Positions 18,536 to 31,143 of a DNA stretch of 64,000 bases are shown piece by piece (position 1 is the stretch's first letter; each line of letters starts with the position of its first letter). The translations under genes and the position numbers were made by a program. The stretch is from positions 341,683-405,682 of the forward strand of contig CAWFMG010000003.1 in the NCBI GenBank assembly GCA_963816875.1. Direction: 5' to 3'. Under the pieces are notes generated by a model. The model was not told the origin of the DNA. It saw nothing but the letters and a program-made list of their open reading frames with translations, and ran no database searches. Source of the stretch: an uncultured Actinomycetota bacterium (GTDB taxonomy: Bacteria > Actinomycetota > Actinomycetes > Streptomycetales > Streptomycetaceae).

Positions 18536-18610
18536 CGGTCCTGACGGGATTTGAACCCGCGGCCTCCACCTTGACAGGGTGGCGAGCACTCCAAACTGCT
18601 CCACAGGACC
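18536..18610 (-). tRNA. tRNA-Asp(GTC): tRNA-Asp (anticodon GTC)
   Basis: Reverse complement GGTCCTGTGGAGCAGTTTGGAGTGCTCGCCACCCTGTCAAGGTGGAGGCCGCGGGTTCAAATCCCGTCAGGACCG. Anticodon loop CTGTCAA. Confidence 0.9.
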
Positions 18611-19088
18611 TGGCGTGTGTGCGAGAGACAGTCTCGCACAGGATCTTGCATGCCCCCAACGGGATTCTGGCCCCGCTCTGAGCCGACCATTTCGGCAGCT
18701 GACAGCGCCGATGTCGCTGAAGCAGCCTATCACGCGCCGGGGGTCCCACCGTGCCGTCGCCCAGGCCCCCCAGGCCCGGGAGGTGCCCCCATGGCCTCAC
18801 CGTCGGCGGCCTCACCGTGGCCTACGCGACGGCCGAGATCACCGCCGTCGGCGACGACGAGGTGACGTTCCGGGCGCCGGCCGCGGACGCCGAGTCGGTG
18901 GTCGTGGTGGAGGGACCGGCCCGTTGCCCGGACACCCGGGTCGCCGGCTCCGAGGGACGCACCACCATCCGCGCCGACCGGCCCGAGTTCACGGTCCGCC
19001 GCGGCTGAGCGAAGGGCCGGCGCCCACCGGTGCCGCTGCCCGACGTCCACGGGTGGTAGCGCCCGCCGACCGCTGTCACGCTGGAGTG

Positions 19089-19721
19089 ATGAACGCCAAG
19101 CGTGACCAGGACGGCGAGCAGGAACGGGCGCTGGCGGAGTACCACCGCAAACGCGACTTCTCCCGGACCGGCGAACCGCGCGGCGGCCCCGGGGATCACG
19201 GTCCGGAGCCGCGGTTCGTCGTGCAGATCCACGACGCCAGCCGCATGCATTTCGACTTCCGGCTGGAGGCGGACGGGGTGCTGAAGTCGTGGGCGATCCC
19301 CAAAGGCCCGTCCACCGATCCGAACGACAAGCGCCTCGCGATGCCGACCGAGGACCATCCGCTGGAGTACCGCGAGTTCGAGGGCGTCATCGCGGAGGGC
19401 GAGTACGGCGCGGGCCCGGTGATCATCTGGGACGAGGGCACCTGGCGGCCGGAGCGCGACCGGTCCGTGGCGGAGTCGCTGCGCCGCGGACACCTCTCGT
19501 TCCGGCTCAAGGGGAAGAAGCTGCGCGGCGGCTTCGCGCTGACCCGCTTCCGCGGCGACACGCCGGGCCAGGAGGAGGCGTGGCTGCTGGTCAAGCGCTC
19601 CGACACCGGCGCCTCCCACGAGGGCGCCGGCACCCCCGATCCGAACCGCGCCCGTTCGGCCCGCACCGGACGCACCCTCCGCCAGGTCCTGGCCGAGAGG
19701 ACCGACCACCACCCGGCGTAG
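19089..19721 (+). CDS. Stand-alone LigD-type 3'-phosphoesterase domain protein
   Basis: ATG 19089 within ORF 18579..19721. EYHRKRDFSRTGEP, FVVQIHDASRMHFDFRLE, LKSWAIPKGPS, EDHPLEY and GEYGAG are typical of the LigD PE domain. Confidence 0.8.
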   Translation: MNAKRDQDGEQERALAEYHRKRDFSRTGEPRGGPGDHGPEPRFVVQIHDASRMHFDFRLEADGVLKSWAIPKGPSTDPNDKRLAMPTEDHPLEYREFEGVIAEGEYGAGPVIIWDEGTWRPERDRSVAESLRRGHLSFRLKGKKLRGGFALTRFRGDTPGQEEAWLLVKRSDTGASHEGAGTPDPNRARSARTGRTLRQVLAERTDHHPA

Positions 19722-19863: not shown

Positions 19864-22800
19864 ATGCGCAGACCGCGCCCGCGCCGGCGCCCGTTTCGGC
19901 CCGGCCCTGCGCCGGCGACCGACCCGGCGAGCGGGGTCAGCTCCCGCGGCCGATGGCGCGGCCGGCCACGCGCCCAGCGGCAGCTCGCCCTGATCGTCGC
20001 CGGCTGCGTCGTCTACGTGGGGATCTTCGTCGTCGCCGTGATCGGCCTGCTGGACGCCGATGTCCGCTGGGTGTTCGACTACGGGGGCGGGGCCGGGAAC
20101 ACCGTGCGGACCATCCTGATGTGGCCGCTCACCCTCGCGGTGGTGACCGGCCTGTTCCTGCTCTGGCGCTACCACCGGGTCTGGGGCCCGTACCGGGCCA
20201 CCGCGCAGCAGGATCCCCGCGAGCTGGTGGAGACCGCCGGCAGCATCAGCGGGGAGGTCGTCGGCCGCGACGAGCTGTGCGAGGCGCTGATCAGGGACCT
20301 GGACGTGCCGGGCTGCGCCAGCCGGACGCATCTGGTGGTGGGCCGGATGGGCTCGGGCAAGACCGCGCTGCTGGTGCTGATGACCCAGCGGCTGGCCGAA
20401 CTGCGGGCGGTGCCGGTGCCGGTTCGGCTGCGCGACGCCCGGGAGCGGCTCGACTTCTGCGAGCTGGGCTTCGCCCGTTTCCTGGAGGATGTCGGCGGCT
20501 CCGTCGCCTCCGGCGTGGAGGCCGAGAAGGTCTGGCGGCGGCTGCTCCAGGAGCGCCGGGTGGTGATCCTCGGCGACGGTCTGGAGGAGGCGCTGCTGGG
20601 CGAGGAGCGCGCCTCGGAGCGGGACAACATCATCCGGCGCGCCATCCGCACCGCCAACCACCAGGACCTGCCGCTGGTCATCGCCTCCCGCCCGCACGAC
20701 CCGCTGCGCGGGATGGACGCCACCATCAGCGAGCTGGAACCGCTCAGCGAGGAGGCGGCGCTGCGGTACGTCTCCAGCGGCGGCGGCTGGAGCGCCAACA
20801 AGGGGACGGTCGACTGGATCGTGCAGACCGCCGACTTCCCCGAGTCCCCGCTCTATCTCCAGCTCGCCCGGCAGCTGCACGGCGCGGAGCTGCTGGAGCA
20901 TTCGGCGGCGCAGCAGGCGGGGGACTTCTCCGACGTCCGCGGCCTCGACCGGGCCGGGCTGCGGCTGCACCTCTTCGAGACGTGGGTGGCGAACCTCGTC
21001 GGCGGCCACCTCTACCCGCATGTCTCGCTGGGCGTGGCGGAGCGCGGCGCGGCCGTCGACTACCTGTCGGCGCTGGCCCTGGTGGGCCTGGGCCGCAACA
21101 CCGTCGAGGTGGCCTTCACCGACCTGCTCGGCCCGCCGGACGGAAGCGGGCCGCCGTATCCGGACGTCGTCGACGAGCTGCGGCGCCGGATGGCGCTGTA
21201 CCGGCGCAGCGTCTACTGCGACGGGTACATGGCGGCCACCTGGGGGCAGCAGCTCGGCATCGTCGAGGCGTACGGCGACCGGGTCCGCTTCCGGCACAGC
21301 CTGATGCAGTCCTATCTGGGGTCCCGCCTGCTGCCGACGCTGCTCACCCCCAACGGGGCGGGTGCGAGTTTCCTCGGGACCGCGCTGCACACGCCGGGCC
21401 GGGAACTGCTCTCCGCCCTGGTGCTGTACTCGCGTTCGCGCCCCGGCCGGTGCACCCACACGGGGCCGGCCGACGCCGACCGCTGGTGCCCGGTGCGCAC
21501 CTCGCGCGAGCTGCTGCTGGCGGCCGTGGACGACACCGCACACGGCCCGGGGCCTCCTGCCGGGGGGAGTCGTCGGCCCACGGTCAAGGACGCGGAGGCG
21601 CGGGCCCTGGCGCTGCCCCGGGCCGGCGCCGAGGTGCTCGATCTGTACGCGGCGGCGATCGAGGTGGACGCGGCCGAGCGGGAGGTGACCCTGGGCCACA
21701 TGGCCGAGGAGCTCGCCGACCTGTGGGGGCAACTGCGCGACCGGGATCCGGAGGCGCTCGGCGAGGCGAAGTCCTCGCTGGTGCGGACCCTGGGCGCCGC
21801 CGTCAGGGAGCTGGCCCGCCGGAACGATCTCGACGGCGACCAGGGCCCGCGGCTCGCCGCCCCCAGCGGCGGGATCCGGACGCTGGAGCGGGTCTACCGC
21901 GCGCTGTTCCGGATGGCAGTCGAGGAGCCGTCGTACCAGGTCAGGCTGGCGATGGCGCTGCAGATCGGGATCGGCGGGGACGCGGCGTTCGCGGCGCTGC
22001 GCAAGCGCCTCACCGACCCCACGTCCCCGCCGGCGGGCGACCCGTACGGCACGGGCTCGTCCGGCACGGACGCGAACGGCGATGCCGATGCGGAGCGGGT
22101 GTGGCGGGAGCGGACGCTCTGCGCGTGGCTGCTGCCGCTGCTGGCCGGCTCGGCGGCCGGCGGGAACGGCGCCGAGTCGCCGCTGGCATACCTGCACCCG
22201 TGGCTGGCGGCCGTCGGCGAGGACCGCCCGCCGGACACGGCGCCGCTGAGCCTGCCCGTGGAGATGGCGCTGGCACAGGGCTTCAAGCTCGCCGCCAACC
22301 GGCGGCACCGCCACCCGTGCGCCCGGGGGTCGCGCAAGGCGCTGGCCGACCTCGCCTGGGAGATGATGCGCCGGACCCGTTTCTGGTACACCCGGCTGAC
22401 GCTGCTGCACGCCCGCACGCTGTGGGAGCTGCCGGACGACGTCTCCCGGCCGCCGGAGCCGCCGGCGGCCGGCGATCCGGAGGAACTGGTCAGGCAGTGG
22501 CTGACCTCCCCCGCCGGCGAGCCGGAGCGGCATCCGTTCCTGCTCGCCGGTGCCCGGCTGGCGGCCGAGACGCTGCGCACCCGGCGGCCCGAACGGTACC
22601 TGTGGACCGACGAGAGCGTGGTGGTCAGCCAGATCGGCTCCCGGGACACGGCGCAGGGCGAGCCGCGCAAGCACAACCTGTGGATCCCGTACTCGATCGG
22701 CTGGAGCGCGCTGGTGCCCGCCGCGCAGCAGCTCGTCGCCGACGTTCTGCTGCTGCTGAACCTCGCGGAGCAGAACGACCGCTCCGCCGACCGGGTGCAG

Positions 22801-23166
22801 CACCTGCGGCGCACCGACCGGCCCCTGCCGCCCTACCTGCCGCCCTGTTTCACCGAGGACCGGTCCTCGCTGCATCCGGAGCGGAGTGGGGCCGACGACG
22901 TCTGGACGGCGGGCGGGGCCACCAGCTGCGGCTGCCCCTTCGAGCTCTGCCCGTATCCGCCGCGGACCCGGCCCAGCATCAGGGCGGACTTCAGCGAGAT
23001 GTTCTGCCGCCGGCAGATGAGCCTGCTGCGCCCGGCGGGCAGGTTCCGGCGGAGGCGGCAGGCGCCCTGGCAGCGCGATATCGACGCGGAGCGGCTGGCC
23101 GTCTTCTGGGAGCGCATGGGCGACCGCCTGCGCCAGGGCAACGCGGACAATCCGCCGCCCAGCTGA
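19864..23166 (+). CDS. Membrane-anchored NACHT/STAND-like P-loop NTPase (about 1100 aa)
   Basis: ORF 19864..23166. Two N-terminal TM spans (LALIVAGCVVYVGIFVVAVIGLL, ILMWPLTLAVVTGLFLLW), Walker A VVGRMGSGKTALLVLM, Walker B-like RVVILGDGLEE, a long helical C-terminal region and a Cys-rich end (CGCPFELCPYP). Start is uncertain. Confidence 0.75.
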   Translation: MRRPRPRRRPFRPGPAPATDPASGVSSRGRWRGRPRAQRQLALIVAGCVVYVGIFVVAVIGLLDADVRWVFDYGGGAGNTVRTILMWPLTLAVVTGLFLLWRYHRVWGPYRATAQQDPRELVETAGSISGEVVGRDELCEALIRDLDVPGCASRTHLVVGRMGSGKTALLVLMTQRLAELRAVPVPVRLRDARERLDFCELGFARFLEDVGGSVASGVEAEKVWRRLLQERRVVILGDGLEEALLGEERASERDNIIRRAIRTANHQDLPLVIASRPHDPLRGMDATISELEPLSEEAALRYVSSGGGWSANKGTVDWIVQTADFPESPLYLQLARQLHGAELLEHSAAQQAGDFSDVRGLDRAGLRLHLFETWVANLVGGHLYPHVSLGVAERGAAVDYLSALALVGLGRNTVEVAFTDLLGPPDGSGPPYPDVVDELRRRMALYRRSVYCDGYMAATWGQQLGIVEAYGDRVRFRHSLMQSYLGSRLLPTLLTPNGAGASFLGTALHTPGRELLSALVLYSRSRPGRCTHTGPADADRWCPVRTSRELLLAAVDDTAHGPGPPAGGSRRPTVKDAEARALALPRAGAEVLDLYAAAIEVDAAEREVTLGHMAEELADLWGQLRDRDPEALGEAKSSLVRTLGAAVRELARRNDLDGDQGPRLAAPSGGIRTLERVYRALFRMAVEEPSYQVRLAMALQIGIGGDAAFAALRKRLTDPTSPPAGDPYGTGSSGTDANGDADAERVWRERTLCAWLLPLLAGSAAGGNGAESPLAYLHPWLAAVGEDRPPDTAPLSLPVEMALAQGFKLAANRRHRHPCARGSRKALADLAWEMMRRTRFWYTRLTLLHARTLWELPDDVSRPPEPPAAGDPEELVRQWLTSPAGEPERHPFLLAGARLAAETLRTRRPERYLWTDESVVVSQIGSRDTAQGEPRKHNLWIPYSIGWSALVPAAQQLVADVLLLLNLAEQNDRSADRVQHLRRTDRPLPPYLPPCFTEDRSSLHPERSGADDVWTAGGATSCGCPFELCPYPPRTRPSIRADFSEMFCRRQMSLLRPAGRFRRRRQAPWQRDIDAERLAVFWERMGDRLRQGNADNPPPS

Positions 23167-25354: not shown

Positions 25355-26635
25355 ATGCCGTGGCGACATAGCAAGGGGGCGCGAGGCATGGCGAGCACGA
25401 CCCGAGGTCCGAGGGGCTCTCGCCCGGGAGGTGCGCCGCAGCACCCCAGGTCAGCGCGCCCGGGGCCGGCGGGAACCCCCGCGCGGCCCGCGTCGGCGGC
25501 CCGCCCGAGATCCGACCGGCGCCCGAGCCCCGCGCTCGAGATCGTCATCGACGGCGAGCAAGGTCCAGGACGCCGGCCCCGGCTGTACGTGCTCGACGGG
25601 CTCCGGCTGGTCGCGGCCCTGATGGTGGCCGCGCACCACTACGTCGGCACGTACCGGGTCAACAAGCCGAACTCCTCGCCGTGGGGCCGCCCGGTCGAGG
25701 AGATCTTCCCCAGCGTCTTCCCGGTCGCCACCTACGGGTGGATCGGCGTCGAGTTCTTCTTCGTCATCAGCGGCTTCGTCATCTGCATGTCCTGCTGGGG
25801 CAAGCGCCCGCGCGACTTCTTCGTCTCCCGGGTGGTCCGCCTCTATCCCGCCTTCTGGTTCGCGGTGCTGCTCACCACGGCCGTCCTCACGGTCTGGCCG
25901 ATGGTGCGTCCCCCGCTGCCGCACGGCGAGATGCTGCTGAACCTCTCGATGCTCAACGAGGGCTTCGGCGTGCGCGGCGTGGACGGCGTCTACTGGACGC
26001 TCTGGTCGGAGCTCCGCTTCTACCTGCTCTTCCTGCTGCTGATGTCCACCGGGCTGACCTACCGCAAGGTCGTCCTCTTCTGCTGCGGCTGGGGCCTCGC
26101 CGCGGCGATCGCGGCCGAGGCCGACTCCGAACTGCTGACCCTCGTCGCCAACCCGTCGGGGGCGCCGTTCTTCATCGCCGGCCTGATCCTCTACCTGATG
26201 CACCGCTTCGGGCCCGACCTGATGCTGTGGGGGATGCTCGGCATGACCTGGCTGCTCGGCCAGTACCAGCTCATCGACCGGGTCGCGTACGAGAGCGTCT
26301 CCTCCTGGAAGGGCGCCACGCTGCTCTTCACCGCGTTCCTGGCGCTGATGGTGGCGATCGCGCTGGGGAAGCTGAACCGGGTACGGGGCAACTGGCTGGT
26401 CGTCGCCGGCTCGTTGACCTACCCCTTCTACCTGATCCACTACGCGATCGGGCTGACCGCCATCTACCTGCTGCACGACGAGATCGACCCGCGGCTGCTG
26501 GTCCTCGCCCTCTTCGCGGCCGGACTCACCGCCGCCTGGCTGATCCACCGCCTGATCGAACGCCCGGTCTCCCGCCTCCTCAGAACCCGCCTCAACCACT
26601 CCCTGGACCGGATGAGAACCCTCCGCGAGACGTAG
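25355..26635 (+). CDS. Acyltransferase family 3 membrane protein (OafA-like)
   Basis: ORF 25355..26635. LDGLRLVAALMVAAHHY, GVEFFFVISGFVI, RLYPAFW and about 10 TM spans. The basic low-complexity N-terminus leaves the true start uncertain. Confidence 0.85.
   Translation: MPWRHSKGARGMASTTRGPRGSRPGGAPQHPRSARPGPAGTPARPASAARPRSDRRPSPALEIVIDGEQGPGRRPRLYVLDGLRLVAALMVAAHHYVGTYRVNKPNSSPWGRPVEEIFPSVFPVATYGWIGVEFFFVISGFVICMSCWGKRPRDFFVSRVVRLYPAFWFAVLLTTAVLTVWPMVRPPLPHGEMLLNLSMLNEGFGVRGVDGVYWTLWSELRFYLLFLLLMSTGLTYRKVVLFCCGWGLAAAIAAEADSELLTLVANPSGAPFFIAGLILYLMHRFGPDLMLWGMLGMTWLLGQYQLIDRVAYESVSSWKGATLLFTAFLALMVAIALGKLNRVRGNWLVVAGSLTYPFYLIHYAIGLTAIYLLHDEIDPRLLVLALFAAGLTAAWLIHRLIERPVSRLLRTRLNHSLDRMRTLRET
26561..26622. 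repeat. Direct repeat copy A (3' end of the acyltransferase gene)
   Basis: 59 of 62 nt identical to 30051..30112 (mismatches at 26578, 26584 and 26596). Confidence 0.85.
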
Positions 26636-26746: not shown

Positions 26747-28006
26747 TCATGACAACAGGGCCCTCGCATGCATCGTCATCCAGTCGCCAACGGCCCTGCG
26801 GAGCCCACGTGAGGTGGGAATCGCCGTCTCGTGCTCGGGCCAGCGCAGCAGGACGCCTCGCGCGGTTTCGACGGCGATGGATTCCAGATCGGCGTCGATG
26901 CTGCCCAGGCGACGCTCCAGACGGTGCTGGAGTTGCTTGAACTTCTCCGGGCTCACGTCATCGAACCGCCTGCTGCCGCAGAGTTTGAGGCCGAGGTCCT
27001 CGGTTTCCCCCATCGGTGCGTAGGGGGCGGTGGCCACCATGTCGTAGGCCGGAGAGAGGGCGGGCGTCCTCTTGTCCCGGTAGATCAGTGACCAGTTCTT
27101 CAGATGGGCGTCTCCGTTGCCGATGACCACGCAGAACGCGATACGGCGGACCGCTTCCGCCAGTGCTGACACATCGTGACCGCGGTGGGCGAGAGCGGCC
27201 ACCGTCTCGAAGGTGCCTTCGTACTTCGCCTCCGGATACTTGTCACGGACCTGCGCGAAATCCTCGATGTGGACCAGTGTGCGGTGGCCGTCGGACAGTC
27301 GGTCGAACCGGCGGACCGCGTAGGCCCATTCCTCGCTGTCCGGCCACATCCGAGGCGGCACGCCATCCAGTTCATCGCGGTGGACCAGCCGCACGTCCGG
27401 TACATCGATGCCGACCGAGCGGGCCAGCGACATCATGGCGAACTCGTTGCGGGGCACGTTGTGATACCGGTTGTCGGGGAACTTCACCAGCCAGTCGCCG
27501 TGGACGCCGAACGACGGAACGGTGAGTCTGTCGCCCTGCGCGAGCATGGAGAACTTCAACGCGACACCGGCCAGCGAGAAACGCCAAGGGGTGTCGCGCA
27601 GTGCCGATCCGACGCGGTCGACGTGCTCTGCTTCCGACTCTCCGTGCCACTCCCATTCGTCGTCCGGTCCATCGGCGGGCATGACCTGTACGGCACCGGG
27701 CAGGTCATGCCCCACCTGCGCGAGGAGTTCCATCTCCCGGTCAAGCGAGACGCCTCGGTCCTGCGCGATCCACTCCCGCAAGGGCCCTTCTGGCAGCAGA
27801 TTGGAGAACCACCTCGGCAGACGAAGCGCCGAGGAGTACGGCCTTCGCAGGTTCTCCTCGAAACGCAGTCCCAGCACCGGGCGGTGCGCGTCATCCAGGT
27901 AGGACTCGTTGAGGACGAAGCGTGTGAAGTCTCCCCGCTGGCAGAGCGTGCCGATGCGGCGGCCGTGCAGCAGTACGGCGTGGCACTTCTCTTCGAGGGC
28001 GTTCAT
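26747..28006 (-). CDS. hipA: HipA-family serine/threonine kinase (toxin-type), 419 aa
   Basis: ORF 26747..28006. N-terminal coupling domain (VLLHGRRIGTL...RLPRWFSNLLPEG), kinase core with GNGDAHLKNWSLIY. ATG overlaps the upstream stop (ATGA). Confidence 0.9.
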   Translation of the reverse strand: MNALEEKCHAVLLHGRRIGTLCQRGDFTRFVLNESYLDDAHRPVLGLRFEENLRRPYSSALRLPRWFSNLLPEGPLREWIAQDRGVSLDREMELLAQVGHDLPGAVQVMPADGPDDEWEWHGESEAEHVDRVGSALRDTPWRFSLAGVALKFSMLAQGDRLTVPSFGVHGDWLVKFPDNRYHNVPRNEFAMMSLARSVGIDVPDVRLVHRDELDGVPPRMWPDSEEWAYAVRRFDRLSDGHRTLVHIEDFAQVRDKYPEAKYEGTFETVAALAHRGHDVSALAEAVRRIAFCVVIGNGDAHLKNWSLIYRDKRTPALSPAYDMVATAPYAPMGETEDLGLKLCGSRRFDDVSPEKFKQLQHRLERRLGSIDADLESIAVETARGVLLRWPEHETAIPTSRGLRRAVGDWMTMHARALLS

Positions 28007-29715
28007 TCCCCCCGTTCCTGCAACTCGTCCATGTCGTCCGCTTCGTCAAAGTTCAGGCTCGCCAGCGAGGGCGTGTCCTCGTATTCCCATTCGGCCATCC
28101 GATCGAGGAACTCGCGCAGTTGCGCGCCGACGGCCGTCTGTCGCCGGGCCAGGAACGCGTCGCGGGCGCCGGAGCGGAGGAGGTCCGTCATCTCCCGGTC
28201 CAGACAGTGCGAGGCGAGCACGGCATCCCAGGCGGCGTGATCCAGCTGCACTGGTTGGTCGCTCAGCAGATGAGGAATCTCGTCTGCCGGATCGGCGTCG
28301 GTCGGCAGGAGAAGGCGGTTCGAGGCCAGGAACTGCTGCTGGGGGGAGAGCCCACGGCGGAAGATCCGATAGGCCACGGTGGCCGCGGTCGGCTGGTCGC
28401 CGAGGAGTGCGGCGAGATCCTGACTGTCGAACGACTCGCCAGTGACGAGGGAACGCGGGCGCAATGACCACCACGCGCTCAGGATCACCTTTGCGGTGGC
28501 CTCGTTGGTCTTGAATCGCGCGGGGTTCGGGATCGTGGGGCGTGCCTCGGCCATCGCCTCCATAAGCCCCTTGACGGAGCCGCGCTCGTCGCCCTGCCTG
28601 ATGCGTGCCGACAGCGCGCGGCCGACCTGCGTAAAACTTCCCTTGAATACGGCAGGCCCGGACACAGCGACCCGCCAGTAGAGGCGACGAAGCAGCCTCA
28701 GGCTGTTCTCCTCGGGCTCCGGGAAGTGAGCGAAAAAGCGGGTGAGCACGACGAGGAGCTGGCGATAGACGAGGAAGGAGAGATGGGGGACCCCGATGTG
28801 CTTCTGAAGGAAGGTGACCGCCCGCACCACCGCCTCCTCGCCCTCGGCAAAGGCCGTGTCGCGGTCCTCGGCGGAGAACTCGGGGGCAGTGCGCCGTCCG
28901 GCTGGGTCGAATTCGTTACGGATGTCGCGGGCGGGGTCGGGCCCTCGTCGCGCCAGGACGGACGCCAGGACGGTGTCGGTGTCGATGGTGCCGAATCCGG
29001 TGCGAGCCGCGACGTTATCCGCGATCCGTGACAGTGTCAGCCGTTCCTCCTGTCCCTTCTCCGGCCCTGCGAACAGGGCGGAGAAGATCTCCGCCCTGCT
29101 GAGGCGTTTGCCGTAGTTGTTCATCCGGTCGAAGATGTCCGTCAGGATCCGCTCGTCGTCCTGCCGCACCAGATAGGCCGGGACCTTGAACTGCCGCAGC
29201 AGCTTCGCGACCCTCTGAGCTTCCTGGACGTAGGGACCCGCCGCTTCCTGCTCCCTGAACCAGGTGAGCAGCAGCTCCAGGTCGAAGAGCACCGGCAGCG
29301 GGATGTGCCGTGGCTCCCGCGTCTTCGGCGCGGAGACGAACTGCCGGTCGGCGAGGTCGTAGTACACGTCGAACGGGGCGTGGAGGTGACCCTGCGGATG
29401 CAGCGCGTTGGCAAGGCTCGTGATGCGCTGCTGGCCGTCGACCACCCACAGGGTGTTCTCGTCGGCCGGCGCGTCGATCTTCAGGCTGCCGAGCGTGATA
29501 GCGGCCGCCGGGGACTTACGCACCCAGAGCAGGAGGCTGCCGACCGGGTACCCCTTGACGATGCTGTCGAAGAGGCGCAGGACGTCCTGCGTGCCCCATC
29601 GGAAATCGCGCTGGAAATGAGGCACGCGCACCTTGCCGGACCAGGCGGAGGCGATCAGGTCGTCCAGCTCGTACGTGGTCGCACTCGGCTGTGTTTCCAG
29701 GCCCGCGCTTTCCAT
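28003..29715 (-). CDS. DUF262-domain protein (GmrSD/ParB-Srx-like N-terminus), 570 aa, no recognisable intact HNH/DUF1524 motif
   Basis: ORF 28003..29715. VPHFQRDFRW, GYPVGSLLLW, VVDGQQRITSL and FDRMNNYGKRLSRAEIF. The C-terminal half is helical, with AYRIFRRG...ASNRLLLP where EHIxP...GNLxLL would be expected. Acidic tail NFDEADDMDELQERGE. Confidence 0.85.
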   Translation of the reverse strand: MESAGLETQPSATTYELDDLIASAWSGKVRVPHFQRDFRWGTQDVLRLFDSIVKGYPVGSLLLWVRKSPAAAITLGSLKIDAPADENTLWVVDGQQRITSLANALHPQGHLHAPFDVYYDLADRQFVSAPKTREPRHIPLPVLFDLELLLTWFREQEAAGPYVQEAQRVAKLLRQFKVPAYLVRQDDERILTDIFDRMNNYGKRLSRAEIFSALFAGPEKGQEERLTLSRIADNVAARTGFGTIDTDTVLASVLARRGPDPARDIRNEFDPAGRRTAPEFSAEDRDTAFAEGEEAVVRAVTFLQKHIGVPHLSFLVYRQLLVVLTRFFAHFPEPEENSLRLLRRLYWRVAVSGPAVFKGSFTQVGRALSARIRQGDERGSVKGLMEAMAEARPTIPNPARFKTNEATAKVILSAWWSLRPRSLVTGESFDSQDLAALLGDQPTAATVAYRIFRRGLSPQQQFLASNRLLLPTDADPADEIPHLLSDQPVQLDHAAWDAVLASHCLDREMTDLLRSGARDAFLARRQTAVGAQLREFLDRMAEWEYEDTPSLASLNFDEADDMDELQERGE

Positions 29716-30042
29716 GATCGCCCTCCCACTTGGTGTACACCTCCAGCCTGGCCACCACCGCGCTGAAGGGCAAAGGGTTACCGCTGCGTCCCATGATTAC
29801 ACAAAGCATTGACACCTTTACGACGAGTCGAGCGGGCGGGCTCAGAGGAGTTCGGTCAGTCGCGCCGCGCGCCGTCGGCGGTGCCGCCGAGCCGGGCTGG
29901 TGACACGATACTGACGTACATACCTGACGTAGCGTCAGAAGCTTGATCCTGCCTGAGCCTCGATCTATCCGCTCCAAGCGTCGTTTCGGAGTGGTTCTCC
30001 GGACTCGGGCCAACGAGACGAAACGTGGATTCTTGTGCATGG

Positions 30043-30125
30043 CCATCCACCGCCCGGTCTCCCGCCTTCTCAGGACCCGCCTCAATCACTCCCTGGACCG
30101 GATGAGAACCCTGCCCTCCGGGTAG
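30043..30125 (+). pseudogene. Orphan remnant of an acyltransferase-3 gene 3' end
   Basis: Encodes IHRPVSRLLRTRLNHSLDRMRTLPSG, compared with LIHRLIERPVSRLLRTRLNHSLDRMRTLRET at the end of 25355..26635. No acyltransferase-like sequence lies upstream of 30043. Confidence 0.7.
30051..30112. repeat. Direct repeat copy B
   Basis: 59 of 62 nt identical to 26561..26622. Confidence 0.85.
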
Positions 30126-30134
30126 GCCGGGGGG

Positions 30135-30992
30135 TCATGCCGTGAAGAAGTCCGCCAGGGCGCGTGCCACCGCGGCGGCGTCGTTCTCCATGGGAATGTG
30201 GCCGGCCCCCGAGATGCGGACCAGTTCGGTGTGCGGCATCTCCGCGGCGAACCGCTCGGCGTAGGTGATCGGCTGGAAACGGTCCTCCTCGCCCCATACC
30301 AGCAGCTTCGGCGCGGTCGAGGCCGCGAGCGCGGGCTGCACGGACCGGGTGTGGCGGCTGTCGGCCGCGGCGGCCAGGCAGAGCCACGAGCGGGCCGTGC
30401 GCGGTGCGGTCCACGGGTGCAGGTACTCGGCGATCTCCGGTTCGCCCGCCGGGCGGCCGAGCGCGGCGGTCAGGGCCGTCCGTCGCGAGGCCAGCAGTTC
30501 CTCGGTGGTGACGGCGGCGCGGGCGGCCGGGTCGCGGAAGCGGGCCACGGCGGGGACCGGCCAGGAGTCGTAGGTCACCGAGTTCACCAGCGCCAGCCGC
30601 TCCACCTCCGCGGCGTCGCCGACCAGCAGGTGCTGGGCGACGGCCCCGCCGATGTCGTGCCCGGCCACCCGGAGCGGCTCGGGCAGCCCGAGCGCGAAGG
30701 CGAACCGAGCGACCCAGGCGGCGAGCGCGGGAACGGCGGCGGTCTCGACGGTCAACTCGCCGCCCGAGCGGCCGAGCCCTGGCAGGTCGACGGCGATCGG
30801 GCGCAGCCCCGCGGCGGCCAGGGCCGGCATGACGGGCAGCCAGACCCGGCTCCAGTAGGTGCCGTGCACGAGGAGCACCGCCGGGGCCCGGTCCTCCCCG
30901 GCGACCAGGTGGCTGGCCGGTAGGCCGTCCACCTCGACCTCGGTGCGGCGGACGGGGGAGGGCGCGGGCGCGGGTTCGTTGGCGAAGGGCAT
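30135..30992 (-). CDS. Alpha/beta-fold hydrolase (Asp-nucleophile type, GHDIGG)
   Basis: ORF 30135..31037 trimmed to ATG 30992 (MPFANE), preceded by GGGAG. VLLVHGTYWS, DLPGLGRS and VAGHDIGGAV. Confidence 0.8.
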   Translation of the reverse strand: MPFANEPAPAPSPVRRTEVEVDGLPASHLVAGEDRAPAVLLVHGTYWSRVWLPVMPALAAAGLRPIAVDLPGLGRSGGELTVETAAVPALAAWVARFAFALGLPEPLRVAGHDIGGAVAQHLLVGDAAEVERLALVNSVTYDSWPVPAVARFRDPAARAAVTTEELLASRRTALTAALGRPAGEPEIAEYLHPWTAPRTARSWLCLAAAADSRHTRSVQPALAASTAPKLLVWGEEDRFQPITYAERFAAEMPHTELVRISGAGHIPMENDAAAVARALADFFTA

Positions 30993-31143
30993 GACGGGAC
31001 TCCCATCGTGAGAGGCGGGGAGAGGGCGACCGCTCATGACCTTTCCGCCGCGCCGGGCGGACGGTCAAATACCCGTTGCGGTATGTCCGCAGGCCGGGCG
31101 AGTATGGCCGCTGATCACCGGGCGCGTGGGGACGGAGGGTGTG

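Follow-up and report, generated by a model that had tools for sequence, protein, structure and literature searches.

A conserved, mobile two-gene operon that pairs a DUF262 protein with a HipA-family kinase

HipA kinases are textbook persistence toxins. What, then, accompanies a HipA-family kinase whose gene has no HipB gene beside it? The question is raised by a locus of an uncultured member of the Streptomycetaceae (assembly GCA_963816875.1, contig CAWFMG010000003.1, positions 341,683–405,682; this whole stretch of 64,000 nt is called the window below), in which hipA overlaps the end of a gene for a 570-aa protein with a DUF262 domain. An earlier, sequence-only reading of the window had proposed that the two genes are translationally coupled, that the DUF262 protein has lost its nuclease motif and sits in the position of an antitoxin or sensor, and that the pair is undescribed; a survey of gene neighborhoods was among the checks set beforehand for this proposal. 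In the analysis presented here, the pair proved to be a real, conserved, and mobile operon. The best reading is that this horizontally mobile two-gene unit is a new genetic organization of HipA-family kinases, and the module is probably of the toxin–antitoxin or abortive infection class. We infer that the kinase is toxic and is neutralized by the DUF262 protein, and likewise that there is a trigger and an anti-phage role.

Conservation of the two-gene unit

The neighborhoods were surveyed from either gene. Anchored on the DUF262 protein and limited to one genome per species, the survey returned 80 loci with 47–80% identity, and hipA was found directly downstream, on the same strand, in 75 of them. 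The five exceptions are two loci cut by contig ends and three genuine ones (L014, L047, and L066). At the 75 paired loci the junction of the two genes ranges from −20 to +72 nt, and its two commonest values are overlaps by 14 nt, at 33 loci, and by 4 nt, at 10. The survey anchored on HipA was a metagenome scan and gave 80 loci with 44–67% identity, 76 of them with enough upstream sequence to be informative; a DUF262 homologue, mostly full-length, lies directly upstream of hipA in 73 of these 76. Because the contigs of this second survey span 44–73% GC, the module is not limited to high-GC actinomycetes. Three distant cluster representatives, recovered with a profile of the C-terminal domain of the DUF262 protein (E ~1e-33), are likewise followed by HipA, and an overlapping pair with ~30% identity is present on two Azospirillum plasmids. 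The pairing came through its test, being conserved from both anchors and across phyla, and the adjacency of the two genes is not chance.

The identities of the DUF262 protein and of HipA correlate when compared pair by pair (r = 0.92, 111 pairs). At the nucleotide level, the window resembles the other loci only up to the limits of the two genes, and no third conserved gene was found across 80 loci, only a lineage-restricted synteny in metagenome-assembled genomes (MAGs) of Pseudonocardiaceae; the unit consists, therefore, of exactly two genes, in a context that differs from genome to genome. A functional coupling of the two genes is close to certain. In the NCBI annotation, homologues of the first gene are named “DUF262 domain-containing protein,” independently of hipA, and homologues of the kinase “type II toxin-antitoxin system HipA family toxin.” The distribution of the module is patchy, as a scan of 185,579 species genomes gave no more than 168 stretches that encode a relative.

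In the window, the ATGA shared by the stop codon of the DUF262 gene and the start codon of hipA was present at 28003–28006, as the sequence-only reading had described, and the same was true of the acidic tail of the DUF262 protein. Judged by its sequence, this overlap couples the translation of the two genes. A Shine-Dalgarno-like G-rich run (GGGGGGA) is found just 5′ of the hipA start, within the DUF262 gene, and GGGAGGG stands 6 nt ahead of the ATG of the DUF262 gene. A sigma-70 consensus scan of the upstream region found no promoter, and a consensus scan found no terminator. Repeated TGACG elements (ACTGACGTACATACCTGACGTAGCGTCAGA) occur 5′ of the DUF262 gene at 29904–29945, and the palindrome CTGACG-N3-CGTCAG near 29921–29937 is a possible local operator. 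No inverted repeat or 8-mer was common to 80 upstream regions of related loci; operators, if any, could be lineage-specific.

No candidate for a conventional antitoxin was encountered beside the pair. The six small open reading frames (ORFs) around it gave no Pfam matches, and when all ORFs that have 40 aa or more and lie no farther than 1.2 kb from the pair were clustered in 80 loci, no small ORF was conserved either upstream or downstream. Gene calls at related loci read only GmrSD_N followed by HipA, with nothing of HipB type, and these results agree with the earlier remark that no small helix-turn-helix ORF precedes the genes. The search for an RNA antitoxin was negative as well, with no Rfam match (E ≤ 0.1) and no tandem repeat of any significance.

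A different arrangement was observed on two high-GC metagenome contigs, where a serine dehydratase gene is directly upstream of HipA and the DUF262 gene is absent (L149, 1396–2499; L158, 4001–5164). These HipA homologues, with 44–47% identity, are either orphan kinases or members of a different clade.

Sequence features of the two proteins

The first reading had called the kinase full-length, and both domains of a HipA protein were indeed recognized above the Pfam gathering thresholds: Couple_hipA at aa 10–108 (76.8 bits, cut-off 22.5) and HipA_C at aa 143–383 (146.1 bits, cut-off 30.5). By sequence, its closest solved relatives are HipT of Escherichia coli O127 (PDB 7AB4, E = 6e-19) and the Legionella HipT, with E. 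coli HipA being more distant (E ~1e-10), and its N-terminal domain matches HipS (E = 2e-4). Ser144, in the Gly-rich loop, aligns with Ser57, the autophosphorylation serine of HipT, and the catalytic loop is read as GNGDAHLKNWSL at aa 296–307. Across 121 members of the family, conservation within this loop reaches at least 98% for GNG and HLKNW and at least 90% for Asp299; S318, A320, Y321, and D322, around the predicted Mg-binding residue, are at least 98% conserved, and the motifs RFDR and H-x-EDF likewise at least 90%. As far as its sequence tells, the kinase is an intact, full-length protein of HipA type, with catalysis predicted from the motifs. Among the PADLOC models it matched only PDC-M03A, weakly (26 bits), and no PDC-M66 model.

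For the DUF262 protein, GmrSD_N was the sole Pfam match (E = 1.6e-28). The DUF262 hallmarks that had been noticed in the 570-aa ORF were all located, namely VPHFQRDFRW (aa 31–40), VVDGQQRITSL (aa 91–101), and FDRMNNYGKRLSRAEIF (aa 195–211), with FQR falling at aa 34–36, RLFDS at aa 47–51, and DGQQR at aa 93–97. In an alignment of 55 homologues, to which all residue conservation given below for this protein refers, H33–R36, L48, D50, S51, and D93–R97 are invariant. RLFDS and DGQQR are nucleotide-binding and hydrolysis motifs in BrxU and HEC-06, both of which need them to function, and mutation of DGQQR abolishes the defense conferred by HEC-06 (bioRxiv 10.1101/2024.01.29.577857). About 120 full-length homologues of ~570 aa, with 55–79% identity, were present among the matches listed, and the mean column identity of the family is 64%. 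The AlphaFold2 model of the protein (predicted local distance difference test score, pLDDT, 84) has BrxU as its best fold match in the PDB (7P9M, E = 1.3e-9), followed by SspE (E = 2e-5), and BrxU is also the best PDB match by sequence profile. When PADLOC models were used, PDC-M55C matched over the full length (215 bits, model positions 3–539 of 554), and the NsnA model of Menshen matched only aa 13–218 (42.5 bits); distant HipA-paired members scored 147–233 bits against PDC-M55C.

In the C-terminal half, the searches for a nuclease were negative. None of the 55 family members matched DUF1524 or HNH at E ≤ 1 in Pfam, a profile search of PDB sequences matched only the N-terminal domain, a separate model of aa 270–570 (pLDDT 79) had no PDB match better than E = 0.48, and the alignment holds no conserved His, Asp, or Asn triad. 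The proposal that the nuclease motif is lost is in agreement with these results: no intact HNH or DUF1524 was detected in the family, and, on the sequences and the models, it is very unlikely that the DUF262 protein is an HNH nuclease. The profile of the C-terminal domain found 1078 clusters (50% identity) at E ≤ 1e-3 among 1.84 billion representatives, and among the 150 matches listed the full-length proteins (~530–590 aa) have this domain at about the same position.

More specifically, the sequence-only reading had taken AYRIFRRG (aa 447–454) and ASNRLLLP (aa 464–471) for the former site of the DUF1524 motif, which reads DHIYP in BrxU and EHICP in HEC-06 (bioRxiv 10.1101/2024.01.29.577857). 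The model places strands at aa 448–450 and 467–469 and a helix at aa 477–485, and the family consensus is xRIFPRG...AANRLFLP, with the would-be His position being variable, so that a vestigial His-Me finger at aa 447–485 is plausible, with a likeness to DHIYP/EHICP...N that is not statistically demonstrable.

Close to the C terminus, the family shares a motif of the form MAEW543xYEDTPxL, with E542 and W543 being invariant and with a conservation of at least 90% for E546, D547, T548, P549, and L551. The pattern A-x-W-x-x-x-(D/R)-x-P was found in six of seven aligned HipA-paired members, distant ones included (the seventh, L126, has Tyr for Trp), and was absent from all three relatives that are not paired with HipA. 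Because the motif is confined to the HipA-paired members aligned, it is a candidate HipA-contacting element, suggested by a small sample of sequences. In the HipBST system, HipS blocks HipT by wedging Trp65 beside the Gly-rich loop (PMC10627512). The acidic tail that follows the motif is present family-wide with a variable sequence and is predicted to be disordered (pLDDT <50 at aa 554–556 and 564–570 of the AlphaFold2 model). The coordinates of these features are collected in Table 1.

Table 1. Positions in the window of the two genes, of the parts of their products, and of the adjoining features
Feature	Position	Strand	Remarks
DUF262 gene	28003..29715	minus	570 aa; operon gene 1; ORF and translation
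hipA-family Ser/Thr kinase gene	26747..28006	minus	419 aa; putative toxin/effector; operon gene 2
ATGA stop/start overlap	28003..28006	minus	TGA of DUF262 gene and ATG of hipA; TCAT on plus strand
DUF262 (ParB/Srx-like NTPase) domain, aa 19-215	29071..29661	minus	Pfam GmrSD_N, E=1.6e-28
C-terminal, mostly helical domain, aa 270-553	28057..28908	minus	no recognizable nuclease
Possible vestigial beta-beta-alpha (His-Me finger) element, aa 447-485	28261..28377	minus	catalytic Asp/Glu-His absent
Conserved C-terminal motif MAEWEYEDTPSL, aa 540-551	28063..28098	minus	candidate HipA-contacting element
Acidic, predicted disordered tail NFDEADDMDELQERGE, aa 555-570	28006..28053	minus	translation
Gly-rich (P-) loop FSLAGVALKFS of kinase, aa 143-153	27548..27580	minus	S144, L145, A146, K151 at least 98% conserved in 121 members
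Catalytic loop GNGDAHLKNWS of kinase, aa 296-306 (Asp299, Asn304)	27089..27121	minus	aligns with HipT GNNDMHLRNF
SPAYDM of kinase, aa 318-323, predicted Mg-binding Asp322 (DFG-equivalent)	27038..27055	minus	aligns with HipT APVYDF
Non-coding region 5′ of DUF262 gene	29716..30044	minus	63-64% GC; presumed promoter
68-nt direct repeat, left copy	26555..26622	plus	present 3′ end of acyltransferase_3 gene
68-nt direct repeat, right copy	30045..30112	plus	93% identical; orphan remnant of acyltransferase 3′ end, in-register TAG
Acyltransferase_3 gene, flanking	25355-26635	plus	Pfam Acyl_transf_3
Alpha/beta hydrolase gene, flanking	30135-31037	minus	

Mobility and possible function

The two genes are the only ones in the 3.4 kb between the copies of the direct repeat. 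GC is 63–68% between the repeats versus 72–78% in the flanks beyond the acyltransferase gene, and GC at third codon positions (GC3) is 0.82–0.85 for the pair versus 0.90–0.96 for the neighboring genes. No integrase was found in the insert. The arrangement suggests that the acyltransferase gene took up an insertion in its 3′ end, by which this end was at the same time restored, and the lower GC together with the direct repeat point to a foreign origin of the pair. On the conjugative plasmid p5 of Azospirillum argentinense (L169), a serine recombinase gene (2005–2667) is directly upstream of the pair, and a similar serine recombinase gene is just upstream of the PDC-M55 operon on plasmid pYEE5 (see below); these recombinases may hint at how such cassettes move.

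Other genes of the window are at a greater distance. A gene 3.6 kb away from the pair encodes a NACHT NTPase-domain protein of 1100 aa (19864–23166, plus strand, Pfam E = 2.3e-7); bacterial proteins of the NACHT type may have antiviral functions. Directly upstream of this gene is that for a LigD_N 3′-phosphoesterase-domain protein of 380 aa (18579–19721, plus strand, E = 8e-44), and an ORF of 2196 aa with a GC3 of 0.90 occupies 43473–50063 on the minus strand.

As to what the operon does, we lean towards a toxin–antitoxin-like module, perhaps of the abortive infection kind, in which a toxic HipA kinase is under the control of the DUF262 protein, which neutralizes it and probably senses the trigger as well. 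By analogy with HipA and HipT, growth would be arrested once the kinase phosphorylates an aminoacyl-tRNA synthetase or some other component of translation. The DUF262 protein, in the place of HipB or HipS, would bind the kinase and hold it inactive, perhaps through the family-specific C-terminal domain and its conserved Trp-containing motif, and the NTPase/DNA-sensing module would detect a cue (phage DNA, for instance, or a shift in nucleotide pools), upon which the kinase would be released or activated. The outcome would be growth arrest, as in toxin–antitoxin or abortive infection types of defense. A more ambitious version of this proposal, which we advance tentatively and hold to be somewhat doubtful as a whole, is that of a widespread, cross-phylum anti-phage system, in which a BrxU-like DUF262 sensor that has lost its HNH gates a separate HipA kinase, with foreign or modified DNA or a nucleotide imbalance leading to translational shutdown and not to DNA cleavage. 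In favor of a defense role, by analogy, are the relatives of the DUF262 protein, since BrxU, SspE, HEC-05/06, NsnA of Menshen, and PDC-M55 are defense proteins or candidates.

Several observations weigh against this interpretation. At four actinomycete chromosomal contexts (in Streptomyces, Micromonospora, and Frankia), the pair is among housekeeping and metabolic genes, with no defense-associated or integrase Pfam annotation within 10 kb in these four loci, on which no PADLOC scan was made, and the context in the window is likewise housekeeping and metabolic, bar the NACHT-domain protein. Phages and viral contigs yielded no copy, with nothing in IMG/VR; the single phage match was a weak and partial one to the N-terminal domain, in a 7.7-kb phage record. 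The PDC systems of PADLOC, to which one of the relatives belongs, are themselves untested candidates, compiled from genes embedded within BREX, DISARM, or type I restriction–modification loci (bioRxiv 10.1101/2024.01.29.577857). The comparison of the C-terminal motif was made with seven sequences on one side and three on the other, and the interaction of the two proteins, the toxicity of the kinase, and its neutralization are what we infer.

The pattern of gene decay does not clearly fit toxin–antitoxin logic either. Interrupted copies of hipA were observed at ~8 of the 75 loci, with frameshifted or truncated hipA next to an apparently intact DUF262 gene at L004, L044, L046, L059, L063, and L069. 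The converse, an interrupted DUF262 gene next to an apparently intact hipA, was observed at ~4 of the 73 metagenome loci (L083, L122, L125, and L151), and three loci carry HipA with no DUF262 gene, two of them having the serine dehydratase neighbor described above. Some of the interrupted copies may be assembly errors, many of them being in MAGs or metagenome contigs.

The main rival, unlikely in our judgment though to be taken seriously, is a plain type II toxin–antitoxin or addiction module that senses no infection. The DUF262 protein would then be a large antitoxin and a ParB-like repressor of the operon, and the module would have a selfish, stabilizing, or persistence role. Such a module is suggested by the upstream position of the partner gene and the overlapping stop and start codons, by the solitary insertion amid housekeeping genes in a context that is different in each genome, by the carriage on large Azospirillum plasmids, by the lack of phage association, and by the name that NCBI already gives to the kinase. 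Against it, a length of 570 aa and strictly conserved RLFDS and DGQQR motifs far exceed the needs of a passive antitoxin, and a conserved operator was not found upstream. Moreover, the relatives of the DUF262 protein (BrxU, SspE, Menshen, and PDC-M55) are all defense proteins or candidates, and the sole tested HipA system with a partner other than HipB, DS-6/HipAD, is anti-phage.

It is improbable that the roles are reversed, with the DUF262 protein being a restriction-like effector that binds DNA or consumes NTP, and HipA a regulator or sensor that switches it by phosphorylation. ParB/Srx-fold proteins can be enzymes themselves (Menshen paper, PMC12065111), the DUF262 protein is more conserved in its N-terminal half, HipA is absent at the three genuine exceptions of the survey (L014, L047, and L066), and kinase-regulated defense is known, for example from a prophage kinase–kinase–phosphatase module (PMC11341870). 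What speaks against the reversal is that neither a nuclease domain nor a catalytic triad was detected in the DUF262 protein, that the characterized HipA-family kinases are growth-arresting toxins (PMC8262856), and that the kinase retains the autophosphorylation serine typical of self-limiting toxins. Finally, that an ordinary GmrSD-type restriction gene stands beside an unrelated hipA by chance, with which a single window alone would be compatible, has a vanishingly small probability and was ruled out by the neighborhood survey, given the adjacency in 75/80 and 73/76 loci across phyla with short overlaps, the joint diversification of the genes (r = 0.92), and a protein without DUF1524.

Returning to a kinase toxin under the control of the DUF262 protein, the interpretation offered by the sequence-only reading has stood as far as conservation and the lack of an HNH and of a HipB are concerned, while sensing, neutralization, and abortive infection keep their conditional form. 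If the DUF262 protein does gate the kinase, a fused nuclease would have been swapped for a separately encoded kinase, and the pair would offer a handle on what DUF262 modules sense. It bears on the control of HipA kinases outside the HipB and HipS paradigms, would link kinase toxins to the DUF262 sensors of type IV restriction, and is a candidate defense system for Streptomyces and other actinomycetes, in which phage defense is less explored.

Comparison with known systems

In the literature searched, no paper pairs HipA with DUF262, GmrSD, or ParB-like proteins; the one paper that contains both words, HipA and DUF262, deals with ptuXYZ, a DUF262 operon of another kind that is unrelated. In the Gerdes 2021 supplements covered by the search, the organisms queried are not named. 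A survey of Hip systems distinguished 10 operon organizations, with HipB, HipS, HipS-HIRAN, a Stl-like HipR, or a resolvase-like protein as partners and with some kinases solitary, and DUF262 is in none of the 10 (PMC8262856). Within this scope, the claim that the pair is undescribed holds. Membership of hipBA, hipBST, PDC-M55, Menshen, and HipAD was considered and rejected, as the defining partner genes are absent, and the DUF262 protein was rejected as a GmrSD-type restriction enzyme because the DUF1524 test failed.

With hipBA of E. coli K-12 the locus has in common a full-length kinase with the Couple_hipA subdomain, the Ser in the Gly-rich loop, the Asp/Asn loop, and the Mg-binding Asp, as well as a partner gene that is upstream of the kinase gene and translationally coupled to it. 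The partner, however, is a DUF262/ParB-like NTPase protein of 570 aa and not the helix-turn-helix HipB of ~90 aa, and unlike in the other Hip operon types it is not HipS, HipS-HIRAN, a Stl-like repressor, or a resolvase-like protein either. Closer in sequence is hipBST of E. coli O127 (PDB 7AB3–7AB5), as the kinase core is most similar to HipT, the N-terminal domain is HipS-like, and Ser144 is aligned. Here, in contrast, kinase and HipS-like domain form one protein, as they do in HipA, with no separate HipS gene and no HipB, and because of this fusion the domain cannot serve as a separate antitoxin.

On the side of the DUF262 protein, members of the GmrSD family (BrxU, 7P9K/7P9M; SspE; HEC-06) have a similar size and the same N-terminal DUF262 with FQR, RLFDS, and DGQQR, whereas in the protein described here no DUF1524/HNH was detected, the (D/E)H dyad is absent, and the partner is a kinase gene. 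In Menshen, PD-T4-2, and Dazbog, DUF262 proteins that lack DUF1524 work together with effectors encoded apart from them, and they have been proposed to be sensors (PMC12065111). The present pair resembles Menshen (NsnABC), PD-T4-2, and Dazbog in having a DUF262 protein without a fused nuclease and an effector in a separate gene. It differs from Menshen in that neither the ATPase transducer NsnB nor the effector NsnC (an inactive PIN plus nuclease) is next to the pair, the candidate effector here being the kinase.

Component C of PDC-M55, a candidate system from the preprint of Payne et al. 2024, is a full-length homologue in which DUF262 is followed by a C-terminal domain of the same kind. Plasmid pYEE5 of Paracoccus yeei carries a bona fide PDC-M55 operon of three genes (L167, 1672–5671), in which A is an ABC ATPase similar to NsnB/AriA (262 bits), B has 347 aa (112 bits), and C scores 417 bits; its layout is Menshen-like. 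In the window, PDC-M55A (the ABC ATPase) and PDC-M55B (~350 aa) are missing, neither product of the pair matches them, and the C-terminal motif with Trp that marks the HipA-paired family is lacking in PDC-M55C. The scores, 215 versus 417 bits, fit a placement of the DUF262 protein of the window in a sister family of PDC-M55C, of which it would not be a member. A further DUF262 relative, with 274 bits against PDC-M55C, is encoded on the conjugative IncFII/IncR plasmid OW969918.1 of Klebsiella pneumoniae (L166, 3979–6572), where it is preceded and overlapped by an ORF of 338 aa with a weak AbiP-like match, perhaps another type of partner. The partners of DUF262 with the same C-terminal domain are thus of two kinds or more.

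The nearest functional parallel is found in DS-6/HipAD (PDC-M66), with two genes, a HipA-family kinase, and a large partner that is not HipB. In this system, a kinase with a DUF3037/DUF1829 partner protects E. coli from phage, and a catalytic mutant loses the protection; a toxin–antitoxin-like abortive infection that needs the kinase activity has been proposed (PMC13092281; PMC12548924). The partner families are unrelated (DUF3037/DUF1829 vs. DUF262), and the kinase described here matches no PDC-M66 model. Because HipAD, in which HipA has a non-HipB partner in defense, and DUF262 sensors with separate effectors are already known, the pair is not categorically new. What is new is a probable HipA-based toxin–antitoxin or defense module with an unorthodox DUF262 partner, seen at at least about 150 other sampled loci, and it would add to the ten genetic organizations listed in 2021 an eleventh, present in at least two phyla.

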